The notes below the pieces were generated by a model, which was given only the letters and a program-made list of their open reading frames with translations, ran no database searches and was not told where the DNA came from. The translations under genes and the position numbers were made by a program. DNA of 24,320 nucleotides, from the NCBI GenBank assembly GCA_049472355.1, contig JBLIRP010000064.1, positions 1 to 24,320 of the forward strand, read 5' to 3'. Positions 5,289-20,568 of the stretch are shown here, in pieces (position 1 is the first letter of the stretch; every line of letters starts with the position of its first letter). The stretch is from a bacterium (GTDB lineage Bacteria; SZUA-182; DTGQ01; JAFGSM01).

Positions 5289-5346
5289 GTCCCGGTCCTG
5301 ACCAAATGCCTGGCGAAGGCGATACCTTGAAGGGGCTTGAAATATT

Positions 5347-5550
5347 TAATTGCCCAACATGGTACGGGGAGGGGAATGCATCTTTTGTTTCGGCTCCCTT
5401 GCACACAGCCTGTAAGGCTCGCTTCGGGCACACCTCAACTCGCCCTTCGGGCTCGAACAAGCGGCGTGCTTTTCCTCAGCTTCGCCCACATGCTGTAGTG
5501 CTCGTCCGCAGGCACACAGATGCATCCCCCTCCCCGTTTTACACAGGGTA
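5347..5550 (+). repeat. ~204-bp dispersed hairpin element, copy 1 (structured RNA or MITE/REP-like)
   Basis: Aligns with the reverse complement of 7135-7340. Outer stem CGGGGAGGGGAATGCATCT/AGATGCATCCCCCTCCCCG, apical GCCC-TTCG-GGC loop. Confidence 0.9.
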
Positions 5551-7134: not shown

Positions 7135-7340
7135 TACCCTGTGGGCGATAGGGCAAGGGGGGTGCGCCTGTGTGCCTGCGGACGAGCACTACAGCCTGTC
7201 GGCGAAGCTTCGGAAAAGCACACCGACTGTTCGAGCCCGAAGGGCGAGTTGAGGTGTGCCCGAAACGAGCCTTACAGGCTGTGTGCAAGGGAGCCGAAAC
7301 AAAAGGCGCATCCCCCTTACCGCACGATATTGAGCAATTA
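7135..7340 (-). repeat. ~206-bp dispersed hairpin element, copy 2
   Basis: Inverted copy of 5347-5550 with long identical stretches. Outer stem GGTAAGGGGGATGCGCCT/AGGCGCACCCCCCTTGCC. Confidence 0.9.
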
Positions 7341-7456
7341 TCTTTTTCGCCTTTTTAACCGCCATTGTTCCATTGAGCGGCATTCAGGCGGGTATTGATG
7401 CATCGATGCCATGATTCAGCCCAAAAGACATTGAATCACAAAGCACGTAACCGCAA

Positions 7457-8626: not shown

Positions 8627-9898
8627 CTATTCCATGATCTCCATGTCAGCCCCAATTCCCTTCATGATACCAGCATAATCCGGGAATGTCACACCCACTG
8701 CCTCGGCCGTGTCGATCACGGTCCGCCCCGAGGCCGTCATCCCGGCAAGGCTCAAGGCCATCACCACCCGATGATCATGGTATCCATAAACATGGGCGCC
8801 ATGAAGCCCCGAATGCTCGATGACCATGCCATCTTCCCTTTCCTCGACATGGGCACCCATCTTTGTGAGCTCATCCGTCATCACCCTGATCCGGTCCGTC
8901 TCCTTTATCCGGGCATGGGCGACATTCCTGATGACGGTCTGTCCCTGTGCATAACATCCGAGCACACTGATGGCAGGCAGAGCATCCGGGGTATTGTTCA
9001 GGTCCAGTTCACATCCGGTAAGCATGGATCCGTTCACCACGATGCCCTCTTTCCCAAACCTTATATCAGCACCCATTTCCCTGAGATACTCCAGCACGTG
9101 CCTATCCGCCTGGGTATCTCCCATATCCAATCCCTTGATAATCAAATCCCTTCCGAGCATCACCCCGGCAACAAGCATAAAGGTGGCGCTCGACCAGTCG
9201 CCGGGAATGGTTTTCTCGAAGGCCGTATAGGCTTGATTCCCGAAGATCCTTATGGTTTCAAGATCATGGTTCTCATATCGTATCCCCAACTCATCCAGCC
9301 ATCTGAGTGTCATCTCGATATAGGGCCGCTCGCAGAGATTCACTATCCTGATTTGGGTGTCCCGAGAGGCCAGCGGACAGTTGATCAGCAGGCTTGAGAT
9401 ATACTGCGAGCTCCGGCAGTCCACTGCGACCCTCCCGCCCTTCAACCTCCCTGTAATCTCCACAGGGGGGCATCCGTTGTTATGCACGGAAACTGCCTGT
9501 GCTCCAAGCATATTCAAGGCATCGAGCAATGGCTGCACCGTCCTTTTTCGTATCGAGGCGTCGCCATCGATAAGGACCTTTTTGTCGCCAAGTGCGGCGG
9601 TGCCCATGATCAGGTTGGTGGTGGTACCTGAATTCAGCGTGTCGATCCTCACACCCGTTTTCGGCCTTCCTGAAAACCCGCTGACGATGAATTCCCCGCC
9701 CTTCTTCTTTATTCCGGCGCCCAGTGCCGTGCACGCATTGATCGCCGCCCGTGTATCGGCGGATTCAAGCGCATTGACTAATCGTGATTCTCCCTCGGCA
9801 AGGGAGGCAAAGACAAATCCCCTGATGGTGTGGGACTTGCTGCTTGGCACCAGGACCTCTCCGCTTATCTTCTCCGTTCTATTAATCTGTAATCTCAT
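8627..9898 (-). CDS. aroA: EPSP synthase
   Basis: PSSKSHT, NSGTT, SSQYISSLL, PGDWSSA, RIKETDRI and DHRVVM motifs. Confidence 0.96.
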   Translation of the reverse strand: MRLQINRTEKISGEVLVPSSKSHTIRGFVFASLAEGESRLVNALESADTRAAINACTALGAGIKKKGGEFIVSGFSGRPKTGVRIDTLNSGTTTNLIMGTAALGDKKVLIDGDASIRKRTVQPLLDALNMLGAQAVSVHNNGCPPVEITGRLKGGRVAVDCRSSQYISSLLINCPLASRDTQIRIVNLCERPYIEMTLRWLDELGIRYENHDLETIRIFGNQAYTAFEKTIPGDWSSATFMLVAGVMLGRDLIIKGLDMGDTQADRHVLEYLREMGADIRFGKEGIVVNGSMLTGCELDLNNTPDALPAISVLGCYAQGQTVIRNVAHARIKETDRIRVMTDELTKMGAHVEEREDGMVIEHSGLHGAHVYGYHDHRVVMALSLAGMTASGRTVIDTAEAVGVTFPDYAGIMKGIGADMEIME

Positions 9899-9944
9899 AG
9901 ATCTCCCAAAACCGCCTTTTTCATCAATTCCTTATCGCAATCCT
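9824..9944. repeat. Direct repeat A (att-like): aroE 3' tail plus aroA 5' end, identical core 9882-9926
   Basis: Matches 12754-12874 at offset 2930 with no gaps. 14 mismatches in 121 bp by my count, 45-bp perfect core. Confidence 0.95.
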
Positions 9945-10158
9945 GGATGAATTTGCCTTCCGCATCCTCTGGGTAATAAGGCCTCAGCCTTTCCCATTCC
10001 CTGGGCTGTGATTCCTGAACAAACGCCAAAACCGCCCTTTTATCAAAGGCCAGATCAGTGCTGAAATCGCCGGCTTTGCCCGCCACCCAACCATTTTGGA
10101 CGAGATGGTCTACGATGGCGGACTCAAAGGTGGATTCGGTGTGGATACCATCAACCAT
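9895..10158 (-). pseudogene. hsdR: Type I restriction subunit HsdR N-terminal fragment (~72 aa) fused in frame to the duplicated aroE C-terminus
   Basis: IHTESTFESAIVDHL..GW...FVQESQPREWERL resembles HsdR N-termini, then DCDKELMKKAVLGDL*, compared with the AroE end DCNKALMKKAVLGDL*. Confidence 0.8.
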
Positions 10159-10375
10159 ATCTTTCCTTTTCCCCAAAAGCCAATGATCAGAGAGTCAAGG
10201 TTTTATATACTGATCCTGATATCATCGTAAACCCACGCCCATCATCATAAATCCACGCTCAGTTACATAACCGTTACATAAGATTTCATTTTATTTTTAA
10301 TAACTTAGCCAATACGAACGGTGTTTGACCATATAAATTGCACATGAAACCCTATATTTTCCGTACAAAAAACAC

Positions 10376-11836
10376 TCAGACCCAGAATGGAACATATTTG
10401 GCATATTTTCTTGATTTTCTATCCGCATCATAATCCCTGATAAATCCGGCTTGAATGGAATCACTGATAATGCGTGAGACGATCGGATAATTTTTTTCAT
10501 CAATACCGAATCTTTCGCGTAAGCTCTGATTGGTCATGAGCTCACCTGAAACGTATTTAAGACAGGCATGCAGATAGCAGGCGCGGATTTTGGCCTGTTT
10601 ATCCATCTGCCGCAATGTCAGAGGGGCGAACAGGATAACCCTGGTAAAGTTATCCCCGATAATGATCTCAGGCGCAGGCAATTGATACAATTCACATTCA
10701 AAAACGACCTTGTCAAAACCGCTGCCTCTTTCTTCACAGATATTCAGACGCCTCATCATACGGGCAAGTTGTTCATTTCTGCTTTCGGGACTGTGATCTA
10801 TAAAGCGAAGGGCATCAATAAGCGGCTTGCCAGGATTAGTGATTTCAATCCGATTATCGAACAATTCAACCATCGATGATGCACCACCAACACTAAAATC
10901 CTGATGGATAATCGCATTGGCAACCAGTTCACGAATAGCAATCGCCGGATATATAGTCACCTCTTTTCGAAGGGCCTGTTCAATGACCTCATTCGTCGGC
11001 AATTGATCGAGCATATATTCTATAAGCCCTTCAAATCCAACAGCATAACCCTTTCTGCCAATTTGTTCTTTTTTTGTTTTAACCCGATTATTTCCCTGAT
11101 AGATAATGACTCTTACTGCCTTTCTTGCAAGCGTATCGAATTGCTCCAAGTCCTTTGCAAACAGGATCCCGCCAAGGTTTGTAATATTGTATCTATCGCC
11201 GCATACTTCGATAACCCTGTCCTGCATTAGTCGGTCAAGTATACCCTTCCTGTTATCCGGCAATGGCAAATTGGACATCTCAAAATATTTGGGATAGTCA
11301 ATCAGACTGAGAACTTCATCTGAAGATGCCTTTTCAAATGCGATGCCTTTCTCGAAAACCGCATGATTCGTTCTTTGCCATATTTTTCGTTCCCTCTCAG
11401 GGTGATCATCGAGGTGTTTTTTATAGGAACCAATGCGAATAAATGTTTCACCCCTGAAGCTGACAGGCCGGTCTCTGGTGGCATCTATCCTGAATATGGC
11501 GAAATGTTTGCCTTCAAAGTCGAACTCAAAAATATCGAGATCTATCCTCGGATTAAGTTGGGTGACAAGGCAGTTCTCCAGTTCCTGATTCCCTTTTTTC
11601 GTTGTCAAGGGACGAAATGTGGTCCCGACCAGCCTGTGTGTTTCATTCTCGATGCCAAAAACCAGATAACCATAAGGCTTGTTTGCATAACGGGCGCTGT
11701 TCGAGAGGGCAGACAGATACTCCCCAATTTCCTGCGGATTCCAATTATCAACCTTGAACTCGGCCCACTCGCATTCCTTGGGCAAAGCCTGGAGAGATTT
11801 AAGCAATTTTTCTAATTCTTTTTGTTTCATTATCAT
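10376..11836 (-). CDS. Schlafen/AlbA_2 domain protein with HATPase (RecG C-terminal-like) and probable wHTH domain
   Basis: ECEWAEFK, SALSN, YLVFGI (AlbA_2). AIRELVANAIIHQDF, IEITNPG, RNEQLA and EERGSG (HATPase_c_4-like). Intact 486 aa, AT-rich. Confidence 0.88.
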   Translation of the reverse strand: MIMKQKELEKLLKSLQALPKECEWAEFKVDNWNPQEIGEYLSALSNSARYANKPYGYLVFGIENETHRLVGTTFRPLTTKKGNQELENCLVTQLNPRIDLDIFEFDFEGKHFAIFRIDATRDRPVSFRGETFIRIGSYKKHLDDHPERERKIWQRTNHAVFEKGIAFEKASSDEVLSLIDYPKYFEMSNLPLPDNRKGILDRLMQDRVIEVCGDRYNITNLGGILFAKDLEQFDTLARKAVRVIIYQGNNRVKTKKEQIGRKGYAVGFEGLIEYMLDQLPTNEVIEQALRKEVTIYPAIAIRELVANAIIHQDFSVGGASSMVELFDNRIEITNPGKPLIDALRFIDHSPESRNEQLARMMRRLNICEERGSGFDKVVFECELYQLPAPEIIIGDNFTRVILFAPLTLRQMDKQAKIRACYLHACLKYVSGELMTNQSLRERFGIDEKNYPIVSRIISDSIQAGFIRDYDADRKSRKYAKYVPFWV

Positions 11837-11852
11837 ATCACCTTGATTTATA

Positions 11853-11999
11853 TTATATCACCTTGATCTTCCCTGTCACCACCTCGCTGATCAAGGCTGT
11901 GCGATATTCCTGAAGGAGGCTGTTTTCTTCAACATTAATATAAAACCATTGTAAATTGGCTGCTCCTAAATATGGTTTTAAATGATAACCTCCTTTATC
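11853..11999 (-). pseudogene. hsdS: HsdS remnant: TRD fragment joined to the conserved C-terminus
   Basis: Manual translation DKGGYHLKPYLGAANLQWFYINVEE-NSLLQEYRTALISEVVTGKIKVI*. LQEYRTALISEVVTGKI is the typical HsdS terminus. Confidence 0.85.
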
Positions 12000-12004
12000 A
12001 TCAA

Positions 12005-12180
12005 AAGTTCCCCCACTTCTTTTTGGCTTAGTTCCAGCTTGGTGCCGACTTGGTGCCAGCTTAGTGCCGGCCTGGTGCCAACCTCATCATGGGCTTTTGA
12101 AGATTCAATGACTTCGGGATGGATCATGAATGTCGTTTTGAAACAGATCCGCTCTTCATCGGTCTCAAAAACGGATTTCG
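12005..12180 (-). pseudogene. Internal fragment of a second RecG-like/AlbA-HATPase family gene
   Basis: VFETDEERICFKTTFMIHP and LSWHQVGTKL resemble the post-HATPase region of such proteins (recognised from memory, unverified). Confidence 0.5.
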
Positions 12181-12185
12181 ACTCC

Positions 12186-12213
12186 TCATTCATCATTCAA
12201 CATTCATCATTCA
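12186..12213 (-). repeat. Four tandem heptamers TGAATGW
   Basis: Plus strand reads TCATTCA TCATTCA ACATTCA TCATTCA, overlapping the hsdM stop. Confidence 0.85.
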
Positions 12214-12734
12214 ACCACTTCCCTTATCATTCCATCCGTTTCCTGTTCCAGGGCCAGGATGTCCCTGCGTATCTCCTCCATGCTGCGCAGGGGTTTGTAT
12301 GTATAGAAATACCTGGTGAAGTTGATCTCATAGCCGATCAAAGAGCAACGACCCGTCGCTTATCGAAGGCAGGCCCGCATCAAAACGCCCGGCAAAGCCC
12401 TTATTTCTCGAACTCGTCCTTGATCTGCTTTTGGGCCTTTTTCCAGTCCACCCCAAAGGGGGGATTGCTGAGCATTCAGGTCGTGGGGGTATTCATCGGC
12501 AATGGAGAGCATCCCGCCGGTGCCGCAGGCAGGGTCGGAGAGGGTCTTGACGATGCCCTCCTTTCTGAGGATGTCTTTGTCATTGACAAAAAGGAGGTTC
12601 ACCATCAGTCTTATGACCTCACGGGGGGTGAAGTGTTCCCCTGCTGTTTCGTTGCTCAGTTCGGCGAATTTGCTGATCAGTTCTTCAAAGATGTATCCCC
12701 TTTCCATACTGTCCACATCCCTGAAATTGTTCAT
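12207..12734 (-). pseudogene. hsdM: HsdM remnant made of four joined fragments
   Basis: MNNFR | GYIFEELI..ETAGEHFTPREVIRLM..DPACGTGGML | MLSNPPFGVDWKK..GRF.AGLP.ISDGSLLF | IGYEINFTRYFY.YKPLRSMEEI..DILALEQE..* in shifting frames. Confidence 0.92.
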
Positions 12735-12753
12735 GTTTCTCACCAATCGATCA

Positions 12754-12874
12754 AATTGTATGGGACTTGCTGCTGGGTACCAGGACCTCTCCACTGATTT
12801 GCTCTGTTCTGTTAATCTGTAATCTCATAGATCTCCCAAAACCGCCTTTTTCATCAGTGCCTTATTGCAATCCT
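12754..12874. repeat. Direct repeat B (att-like): true aroE 3' end plus a 25-codon dead-end aroA fragment, identical core 12812-12856
   Basis: Translates MRLQINRTEQISGEVLVPSSKSHTI*, compared with AroA MRLQINRTEKISGEVLVPSSKSHTIRG. Confidence 0.95.
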
Positions 12875-14291
12875 TCCCTGTCCACAGCAGGAATTGCCGT
12901 GCCGCCTGATTAACGAACATCTCCACCCCTGAAACCGTCCGGCAGCCATTCTCAGCCGCCATCCTTAATAATCTGGTTTGACTGGGATTATAAACCGTAT
13001 CAAAAACAACCATATCCTTCAATACATCCGCCTCCACCGGGCTTTGGTCAATATCCGGTGACATGCCGATGGAGGTGGCATTGATCAGGATCTCCACGTC
13101 ATCCCATGGCACATCATCCATGCTCACAAACGTGCATCCCAGGTCAGCGGCCAGCCCCCTTCCCTTCTCCTCCGTTCGGTTGACGATGCTCAACCTCGCT
13201 CCCCTCTTCAGGACACCATAGCCGATTGCGCGTGCCACCCCCCCGGCTCCGATCATCAGCACCTTCCTTCCATCCAGGCGGGTCTTCCCTTCGATGGCCT
13301 CCACGGCCCCGTCGATATCCGTATTAAATCCCATTAACCTTCCGTCCCTCACCACGACGGTATTCACCGCACCCACCCTGCGGGCATCATCATCCACTTC
13401 ATCCAGGTATTCCATGATCCCCTGTTTATGGGGCATGGTCACACTAAAGCCGGCCAGTCGCTCCCTGAATGCGGACACGAATGCACCGATGTCATTGACC
13501 GGGAAATTGAGATACACGGCATTCAACCCGTGCTCCCTGAAACAGAGATTATGGATGAGATACCCCTTGCTCTTGGATACGGGGTTTCCGACCAGGCCGT
13601 ACAGGCGCAGGCCTTTGAGCTTGAGATCCTTGACCCTGTAGACATCCCTCAGGGTAGTACAGCGGATCTGGCCGGGTGCGGATTCCCTTCCCTTCTCCAT
13701 GCTGCCGAAGGTGAGGTACGAACCATAGGCGCACGCGAGAATTCTGGATATCTCTCCCAGGTCTCCCATGCATATCCCGATAAAATCCCTGCCCTCTTTC
13801 CTGGCCTGTTCAATCAGGCTGAGCATCCTCAGATTGTCCCTTAAATCCGTTGGCATCACGGCTATCTTCAGGATATCCGCGCCGAACCCCTTCATCTGCT
13901 CATAAATCCCTTCAATATCCGCAGGCATCTCGTTGAAATTATGATAGGATAGAATAATCCTTGAATCCTTTCTGCAGGCCATCACCTCCTGCACTGCCCG
14001 CCTGCCGGAACTCATCTCGATATCCACATGATCAGCACCGAACTCGGCGCACCGTCTCAATATCTCTATCCTTCTCTCCTCGCTGCCGGAATACCTCCCC
14101 CCTTCATCCGGCTTCCTGCAGGTCATGATCAGGGGGCATTTTTTCCAGGATATGATCTCTTTCAGGTCGGCATCATTCAATTCGGATATATAGTCCAGCC
14201 TGACCTCGACGATATCCGCCGTCCGGGCGACCACATCCATATGTCTCCTTACGTCACCGATATCTTCCGCAATGACCGGACAGCATATCAC
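12825..14291 (-). CDS. aroE: Bifunctional type I 3-dehydroquinate dehydratase / shikimate dehydrogenase (AroD-AroE fusion)
   Basis: EVRLD, SYHNF, LKIAV and SAPGQ (AroD). SVTMPHK, GAVNT, NTD, GAGG and NRT (AroE). GTG start. Confidence 0.95.
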   Translation of the reverse strand: MICCPVIAEDIGDVRRHMDVVARTADIVEVRLDYISELNDADLKEIISWKKCPLIMTCRKPDEGGRYSGSEERRIEILRRCAEFGADHVDIEMSSGRRAVQEVMACRKDSRIILSYHNFNEMPADIEGIYEQMKGFGADILKIAVMPTDLRDNLRMLSLIEQARKEGRDFIGICMGDLGEISRILACAYGSYLTFGSMEKGRESAPGQIRCTTLRDVYRVKDLKLKGLRLYGLVGNPVSKSKGYLIHNLCFREHGLNAVYLNFPVNDIGAFVSAFRERLAGFSVTMPHKQGIMEYLDEVDDDARRVGAVNTVVVRDGRLMGFNTDIDGAVEAIEGKTRLDGRKVLMIGAGGVARAIGYGVLKRGARLSIVNRTEEKGRGLAADLGCTFVSMDDVPWDDVEILINATSIGMSPDIDQSPVEADVLKDMVVFDTVYNPSQTRLLRMAAENGCRTVSGVEMFVNQAARQFLLWTGKDCNKALMKKAVLGDL

Positions 14292-14450
14292 GGCATAACC
14301 CCTGAAATTCTTCTTTTGACGCCAATAAAGACGAATTCGTGAATCACCGATGATAGGGGTGGATATGCCTGATCAACAATAGGTGCATACACCCGTATTT
14401 GAGTAGCAGTTTCCATTCTGTTTTCCGGCTGGTACAATGATCAGTACATG

Positions 14451-14539
14451 ATCATCGGTTGCCGGTAATTTTTGGACTCCCGCATGCATCAGAGAGTTCC
14501 ACCTGTTCCCCCTGACAGGGCTCGCGGCAACCGGGTGAT
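14451..14539 (-). other. Predicted three-helix RNA structure in the aro operon leader
   Basis: P1 ATCACCCGGTTGCCG/CGGCAACCGATGAT encloses CCTGT/ACAGG and GGAACTCTC/GGGAGTCC stems. Confidence 0.45.
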
Positions 14540-14554
14540 AGGAATTCACTGACA

Positions 14555-14583
14555 ATGATATCGTTCTTTAGGTTGAATATCAA
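14555..14583 (-). promoter_or_regulatory. Sigma70-type promoter upstream of the aro operon
   Basis: TTGATA (14583-14578), 17-bp spacer, TATCAT (14560-14555). Confidence 0.6.
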
Positions 14584-14748
14584 GGAGTTGAAACCCTTCA
14601 CCCACAAAAAAAGGGGGTTCCGCTTAGGAAGGCGTAGACATGTGGAAGATTGCATACAGGGGACGGACAGGGATTTCGGTCACATAGTCGAACATCCATG
14701 GTTGTGCGCCAGGCAAGTCCGGTATAGGCTTTGGGGTGAAGCCGCTTC

Positions 14749-20299: not shown

Positions 20300-20433
20300 G
20301 GGGATTGTCAAGATGAAACGCACATGAGCCGGATGAAACTGCGAATATCGAATGTAGAATGTGGAAGTGAAACGCAGATGAGCCTTCGGCTCACAAAGAG
20401 GCATGAAAATCCTGGGGGATTGTCAAGATGAAA
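20300..20433. repeat. 19-bp direct repeats flanking a 96-bp repetitive segment
   Basis: GGGGATTGTCAAGATGAAA at 20300-20318 and 20415-20433. Also TGAAACGCA(C/G)ATGAGCC twice, GAATNNN heptamers and a TGAGCC-TTC-GGCTCA hairpin. Confidence 0.75.
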
Positions 20434-20568
20434 TAATTGCATGGAGGTCTTTACGGGTGTCATGCTGCACTTTTTGCTGAACCCCCGTTATCTTTATGGA
20501 GTCTCCCCGGCACCCATTAGTGAACATGGCGGGGGCATTATACATGTACCGCACAGAGCGCAGATGCC

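Follow-up and report, generated by a model that had tools for sequence, protein, structure and literature searches.

A type I restriction-modification operon in decay between two diverged copies of an aroE/aroA junction

How did a 2.8-kb insert come to lie between aroE and aroA, bracketed by two unequal copies of the junction that it splits and carrying no recombinase? We addressed this question in a stretch of 24,320 nt (contig JBLIRP010000064.1 of assembly GCA_049472355.1; lineage SZUA-182, DTGQ01, JAFGSM01), hereafter the window, in which all parts listed lie on the minus strand. Judged by homology, the insert is a type I restriction-modification (RM) operon reduced to 2.8 kb, and the locus is a real, decayed example of an insertion class that has already been described. 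The origin that we favour, with modest confidence, is a larger RM segment that came with a congener's version of the junction, entered the chromosome through homologous recombination of the host and then decayed.

The direct repeat spans 120 nt at an offset of 2930, with 107/120 positions identical. This bears out the ~121-bp repeats of an earlier note on this DNA, the 121st base (9824/12754) being the differing third base of codon 25. The second-longest direct-repeat family listed for the window measures 31 nt, and blastn of 9700-13000 against the whole genome found no third copy. Inside the repeat, the core of 45 nt is exactly identical, as that note had said, and runs from the final codons of aroE through its stop to nt 17 of aroA, the two genes overlapping at the aroE stop and aroA start. 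Also as described there, the order is full aroE, core, a dead-end 5' piece of aroA, insert, aroE tail, core and full aroA, with both aroE and aroA intact, and the aroA part of the repeat (codons 6-25) holds 11 differences, nine of them synonymous and two in codon 10 (K/Q). The 18-nt "aroE tail" outside the core has three further differences, absent from that note, of which two are non-synonymous. The insert between the copies measures 2,810 bp (GC 0.447, against 0.540 for the genome), and a crossover within the exact core would leave aroE and aroA whole. In all four congeneric genomes aroDE is followed directly by aroA, which identifies the 2.8 kb separating the copies as an insertion; relative to the sister genome G001, the target has been duplicated and no recipient DNA lost in aroDE-aroA.

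The insert is almost wholly pseudogene debris, a point missing from the earlier note. Its model is a contig of a Nitrospirae metagenome-assembled genome (L040), found among 28 related loci, which holds an intact hsdM-hsdS-AlbA_2/HATPase-hsdR operon of 7,889 bp. The window retains the same order in pieces that are 58-80% identical to L040 in protein sequence, whereas L040 has whole hsdM, hsdS and hsdR genes and does not lie beside aro genes. The hsdM remnant, located with P0063, P0065, P0060 and L040 HsdM as queries, matches PADLOC MTase_I at 3e-33 and departs from 7 of 108 conserved columns, whereas none of the 110 homologues, which themselves defined the columns, departs from more than 5. Identification of the hsdR remnant, which keeps about the first 76 residues, is supported by 59 HsdR matches among 119 candidates. 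At least five losses can be mapped: HsdM residues 1-139, 231-282 and 328-547, nearly all of HsdS, and HsdR after about residue 76. A functional type I system takes intact hsdM, hsdS and hsdR; here all three are truncated and hsdM is frameshifted. The AlbA_2/HATPase protein is 75-76% identical to its counterparts in L039 and L040, with synonymous divergence (dS) from L039 saturated, and its departures from conserved sites lie within the range of 21 homologues under leave-one-out comparison (rank 3 of 22), under which an initial sign of decay in this gene (7/156 conserved columns) vanished.

Table 1. Features of the locus (window coordinates) and scar-like loci elsewhere in the genome (contig coordinates)
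Feature	Position	Strand	Basis or remark
aroD-aroE fusion, intact, 488 aa	12825..14291	-	Pfam DHquinase_I, Shikimate_dh_N, SDH_C; 90% identity to G001 orthologue
Upstream repeat: aroE 3' end, core, dead-end aroA codons 1-25, then stop	12755..12874	-	
45-nt exact core, upstream copy	12812..12856	-	Identity G001 43/45, G002-G004 31-38/45
hsdM remnant, three pieces (homologue residues ~140-230, 283-327 frameshifted, 548-589)	12207..12746	-	tblastn
72-aa piece matching the C-terminal part of a 548-aa open reading frame (ORF) that follows the G003 hsdM remnant	11981..12196	-	54% over 37 aa to L034
hsdS C-terminal remnant (last 25 residues; L040 residues 400-424 of 424)	11853..11930	-	80% identity, E 8e-8
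Sigma-70-like site, just upstream of the AlbA_2 gene	11852..11879	-	11/12 matches, TG extension; may be chance
SLFN_AlbA_2 + HATPase_c_4 gene, intact, 486 aa; sole whole cargo gene	10376..11836	-	Pfam
hsdR N-terminal remnant, in-frame fusion to aroE-like tail; stop overlaps aroA start	9895..10176	-	58% to L040 HsdR residues 10-88
Downstream repeat: 18-nt aroE-like or hsdR-like tail, core (9882-9926), working aroA start	9825..9944	-	
aroA (EPSP synthase), intact, 423 aa, mosaic relative to congeners	8627..9898	-	Pfam EPSP_synthase
Scar-like: HycI tail	C72:20050-35707		6 silent, 1 not; 15.4 kb
Scar-like: flavin/Fe-S protein tail	C72:68012-73538		7 silent, 1 not; 5.3 kb; DDE transposase in cargo
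Scar-like: PNPOx tail	C60:17843-33770		5 silent, 9 not; 15.7 kb
Scar-like: ABC ATPase piece	C77:18418-23044		Cargo: methylase, two HNH genes, XhoI-like fragment

The 72-aa piece downstream of hsdM has no Pfam match; the related full ORF lies at L067 4103-5746. There (L067:2899-5746, on G003:C77), a more decayed hsdM remnant and the 548-aa ORF follow a PNPOx gene and the stranded tail of a phosphoenolpyruvate-synthase-like gene; the same PNPOx gene has a tail duplication in the window's genome. We considered this G003 remnant as a copy of the same cassette and rejected it, the locus being different and without repeat arms. In a related type I operon (L068:2192-4648, on G006:C102), copies of 165 nt of the hsdM end and 81 nt of the hsdS start bracket accessory genes.

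The two arm-cargo joints lie within hsdM and hsdR, and because both cut inside these genes, the present ends of the insert are evidently truncation scars. It follows that arrival size, original arm length and the absence or loss of a recombinase are unreadable from the present insert. That no recombinase is encoded, as the earlier note stated, agrees with our scan of eight window proteins, none of which is one, but this says little, the ends being scars. No integrase trace was found in the cargo and no other mobile-element gene in the present insert, from which such a gene may have been lost through deletion. Across the genome, XerD and a XerC-like protein are the only full-length PF00589 matches, and PF00239 has no match; comEC, dprA and a partial recA at a contig end are present.

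Read support was surveyed in 20 runs from seven studies, with runs of small word share left out, and contigs were compared with the window in four of them (X1, X6, X8 and X16). At least half of the words of 9500-13200 occur in 11 of the 20 runs, the flanks accounting for about a quarter of those words. Stretches 9897-10550, 10740-11334 and 11337-12578 are covered in X8 by contigs that match without a single difference and take in the hsdR/tail joint as well as the inner joints of hsdM; an X16 contig (12398-12844), also with 0 differences, bridges the aroA/hsdM joint. Depth in X8 is similar over cargo (2.8-5.2) and flank (4.3). X1 and X6 contain the flanks and almost no cargo depth, but only ~60% of each run was read, so absence is not implied. 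The studies behind X8 and X16 have rows of equal size in common and could be a single campaign or the source of the window itself. On the spanning of both junctions, whose lack the earlier note would have read as a chimeric assembly, the contigs give part of an answer: they bridge both arm-cargo joints, and the whole cores stay uncrossed. Because the contigs are interrupted within the 45-nt core, these data do not tell the integrated form from the empty or the circular one, and the circle joint for which that note proposed to look is not listed. The empty junction, its companion, appears in a single X16 contig, and this differs at 34 of 474 letters (~93% identical) and matches G001 at six listed letters between 12859 and 12912, by which it is assigned to another species. 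As a separate observation, a low-complexity stretch past the hsdM stop (12181-12212), single-copy in the genome, draws very deep unrelated X8 contigs (bin depth 1622).

Where the repeat arms came from was examined through their differences. The earlier note argued that neutral decay of a duplication would not be biased to silent sites, and the numbers agree: with ~26% of random changes silent as the baseline, nine of 11 gives P ~2e-4, and leaving out the three sites beside the joint gives 6/8 (P 5e-3). Given a silent bias at P 2e-4 to 5e-3, the two aroA starts diverged under selection. An hsdM origin for the last three silent differences was considered and found no support in 117 HsdM homologues. 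At the rate of hsdM decay (7/108), we estimate that the dead aroA piece would have gained only about two changes, mostly non-silent. Between +17 and +71 the copies differ at 10 aroA sites; six of these show the G001 base in the working copy and two show it in the dead-end copy. In the tree the working aroA groups with G001, leaving the dead-end copy outside this pair at support values of 85/84 and 81/82, which lie under the tool's threshold. The dead-end aroA arm is probably foreign and derived from a congener. The functional ortholog from a related genome that the earlier note named as its source is sustained as regards divergence while functional; its placement outside the host and G001 is weak.

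The opposite arm points elsewhere. Continuing the frame of HsdR K-F-I-Q, the 18 nt beyond the core encode D-C-D-K-E-L; HsdR homologues carry K-E-L at that point in 49 of 50 rows (the anchor was matched by 50 of 59 homologues, in one case wrongly). Two of the three differences in this tail fit hsdR codons, suggesting that it may be partly hsdR sequence at a microhomology joint, whereas the earlier note read it as an orphan aroE tail. The bases next to the aroA joint gave no clear HsdM match. The working aroA gene is itself mosaic relative to G001 and G002: a tract at ~nt 800-960 is closer to G002 than to sister G001 (permutation p 0.0002-0.004), ~nt 150-315 holds a cluster of differences from G001 (p ~0.001) in a tract far from all congeners, and the 3' tract is nearly identical to G001 (p 0.003-0.005). 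Because of this mosaic we conclude that congeneric alleles enter aroA, a pattern that would support a foreign arm, though it leaves room as well for exchange subsequent to a native duplication.

The junction pattern had one match in Joint Genome Institute (JGI) metagenomes, L031:1-2068, from a congener ~89-94% identical to G002. In order, it shows the end of aroE and 10 nt of aroA, then low-GC DNA (0.9 kb), then the upstream region once more with 100 aroD codons, run by deletion into a short aroE tail, and lastly a 65-nt repeat and aroA; the low-GC ORF is presumably receiver-domain-like. By its arrangement, L031 represents a separate duplication at the same junction and illustrates a long second copy trimmed to its tail. 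The ~65-nt repeat is dispersed in the window's genome (window 20368-20434; 58 near-full copies among 68 genome matches), and in L031, at the start of aroA, it is flanked on either side by the same 6-nt sequence, as a miniature inverted-repeat transposable element with its target duplication would be.

The course of events that we hold to be moderately probable begins with a type I RM operon of at least ~8 kb (hsdM, accessory gene, hsdS, AlbA_2/HATPase and hsdR), which would have entered where aroE and aroA overlap, bringing along that junction from a congener and integrating through a RecA-type crossover of the host's homologous recombination. Later deletions would then have taken most of hsdM, hsdS and hsdR and cut both ends, and probably also shortened originally longer arms, ending in 2.8 kb with one working gene. 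Several observations weigh against this course. A donor that differs at 10 of 57 aroA sites nevertheless matches the core at 45/45, against 43/45 for G001, and a full core match by so divergent a donor needs chance or gene conversion. The tree that places the dead-end copy is based on 58-121 columns, with support below threshold. In the four runs, no contig extends from unique window sequence across an entire core into unique window sequence beyond it, so that integration rests on the assembly. A same-species empty allele was not found, the comparison set of four congeners containing no other genome of the species, nor was a longer version of the insert. L031 is one unverified 2-kb metagenome contig, and with the genome 87.5% complete, an integrase could be unassembled.

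The perfect core is accounted for directly if the junction was duplicated natively at insertion and one copy, most simply the working aroA, was later overwritten by a congener allele, an exchange of the kind that the permutation scans of aroA reveal. Such an exchange would have to begin exactly past the core, and it is the working copy, not the dead one, that lies nearer sister G001, as expected of a native copy; we regard this route as possible but unlikely. An island of the e14/icd type would instead have brought a diverged target piece in its attP and lost its own tyrosine or serine recombinase through deletion. Prophage e14 does leave a gene and a silent-site-diverged fragment, icd and icdC, in the available text of its description (PMC13626634), and at our locus, likewise, a diverged target copy is carried by the element with the target restored. 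Deletions have cut both cargo ends, and congener genomes have more PF00589 matches than this one (5-14 each vs 4). Set against these points, the cargo retains no integrase trace, nor does an integrase stand beside the repeat; the arm had 0 matches in IMG/VR and none in plasmids or phages, our literature search found no paper on aroA/aroE as an integration or attachment site, and L031 shows no integrase in its 2 kb by six-frame translation only. An integrase-island remnant is accordingly rated as quite unlikely.

The earlier note had proposed one crossover between the chromosome and a small circle. Its topology fits exactly, and single crossovers of non-replicating circles gave duplications of 109-950 bp in Escherichia coli (PMC3240628). 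What finds no support is the 2.93-kb circle with a captured 120-bp arm, the cargo being a remnant and its ends scars. The order of deletions and arrival is indeterminable from the data, which leaves room for a circle that was already reduced, integrated by one crossover in the 45-bp core and can re-excise; it would require two prior illegitimate joints, inside the donor's hsdM and hsdR, and it has no replication or transfer gene. Nor was the cassette found at other loci, where the earlier note would have sought it with other arms: there is none in its own genome, and among 19 other genomes of the class five had only short distant matches. Forty-five exact bases are a poor RecA substrate, and we consider the literal circle very unlikely. 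Least probable is an assembly chimera, two organisms joined via the 45-nt core: the lack of a core-spanning contig and of depth over most cargo in X1 and X6 would suit it, yet both arm-cargo joints and the inner hsdM joints lie within single 0-difference contigs, half or more of the words of 9500-13200 recur in 11 of the 20 runs surveyed, X1 and X6 were read in part, and cargo depth in X8 resembles that of the flank.

Returning to a decayed RM segment integrated by homologous recombination, its closest known relatives are the "insertions with long target duplication" of Furuta et al. 2010 (PMC2853133). In the available text, these contain R and M homologues, measure <20 kb, duplicate >30 bp and carry no other mobile element; they are reported for RM types I-IV, with an empty site in relatives. 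Their repeats run from 46 to 423 bp; many are imperfect (83/96, 98/104, 368/393), and many lie across a start or stop codon, so that the target stays whole. One Haemophilus influenzae case is of type I, an M-S-R operon accompanied by two accessory genes, and its 46-bp repeat overlaps the end of a gene; the supplementary figures include insertion into an operon-like structure (PMC2853133). Our locus likewise has R and M homologues, as hsdM and hsdR fragments only, in an insert of 2,810 bp now (7,889 bp for the intact homologue), with a 120-nt duplication (45 exact) lacking a third genome copy and no other mobile-element gene in the present insert. It differs in that its RM genes are debris and its ends truncation scars, that the empty site comes from other species only, and that its arms show a silent-site bias pointing to a congeneric allele; the word "synonymous" is absent from the main text of that paper as available (PMC2853133).

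Other systems share single traits, as far as the partial text of each source goes. In e14 (PMC13626634), an intact gene and a stranded, silent-site-diverged fragment bracket the insert, and recombination between them removes it, but e14 is 15 kb and excises on SOS induction, whereas no integrase is present here and the repeat straddles two genes. Single crossovers and homology-facilitated illegitimate recombination (HFIR; PMC3240628) are RecA-dependent, need no element-encoded recombinase and yield duplications of 109-950 bp; HFIR joints use 3-10 bp of microhomology, as the hsdR/aroE joint may, but HFIR usually deletes recipient DNA, none of which is lost here, and was seen in laboratory constructs. 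As in SNAP, in which the copies of a duplication lose genes reciprocally (PMC7055797), each copy here keeps one gene, aroE upstream and aroA downstream, and loses the other; SNAP locks the duplication, whereas the core here still permits clean excision keeping both genes. Looser parallels are merodiploid formation via transformation (PMC3784515) and provirus decay through deletion (PMC13626063).

Comparable scars may exist elsewhere in this genome. Forty-eight same-contig repeat pairs passed our filter, and four of eight inspected loci hold cargo together with an intact gene and an orphan, diverged piece of that gene (Table 1), with a clean empty site shown for none of the four. The flavin/Fe-S protein on C72 is one that we take to be HdrA-like, and one C72 cargo is a single 4,574-aa Peptidase_C25/Laminin_G protein. 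No integrase family appears among the best matches listed for 37 proteins at the inspected loci. L084 proved to be a pair of paralogues and was rejected as a scar; L086, L087 and L092 are not assigned to a class. Two side observations concern the rest of the window. The stretch that precedes aroDE (14297-14590) measures 0.3 kb here, 1.7 kb in G001 and, in G002, several kb; evidently the leader of the aro operon also turns over between congeners. At 5339-5531 and 7156-7348 lies an intergenic inverted pair of 193 nt (88% complementary), with 3 near-full copies among 26 genome matches and absent at both places from the matching G001 stretch.

Two further features are leads only. The in-frame fusion of hsdR to the tail keeps a stop over the aroA start, which a random joint would do 1 time in 3, and the sigma-70-like site is not significant, 11% of 200 shuffles giving at least one such site in the region. 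They belong to a wider conjecture, unlikely in our judgement, in which the aroE/aroA overlap is, in this genus, a reusable landing pad, species-swapped gene-end arms are the main integrase-free route of gain, and post-landing deletions are selected for downstream expression. If it were true, the stop of the hsdR stub would overlap the aroA start as that of aroE did, the promoter-like site could drive aroA-aroC, and a dead defence operon would have been wired into a core biosynthetic operon.

The genus is uncultured in the data examined, and this locus leaves current models unchanged. To an insertion class that has already been described, the case contributes evidence that an allele from a relative, and not a newly made copy of the host site, can serve as the duplicated "target"; this favours ordinary homologous recombination through arms that the donor brought. 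A caution goes with it, as short arms and a missing integrase can stem from later deletion. The genus offers a usable test set, with several scars in a single genome and two separate events at this junction.

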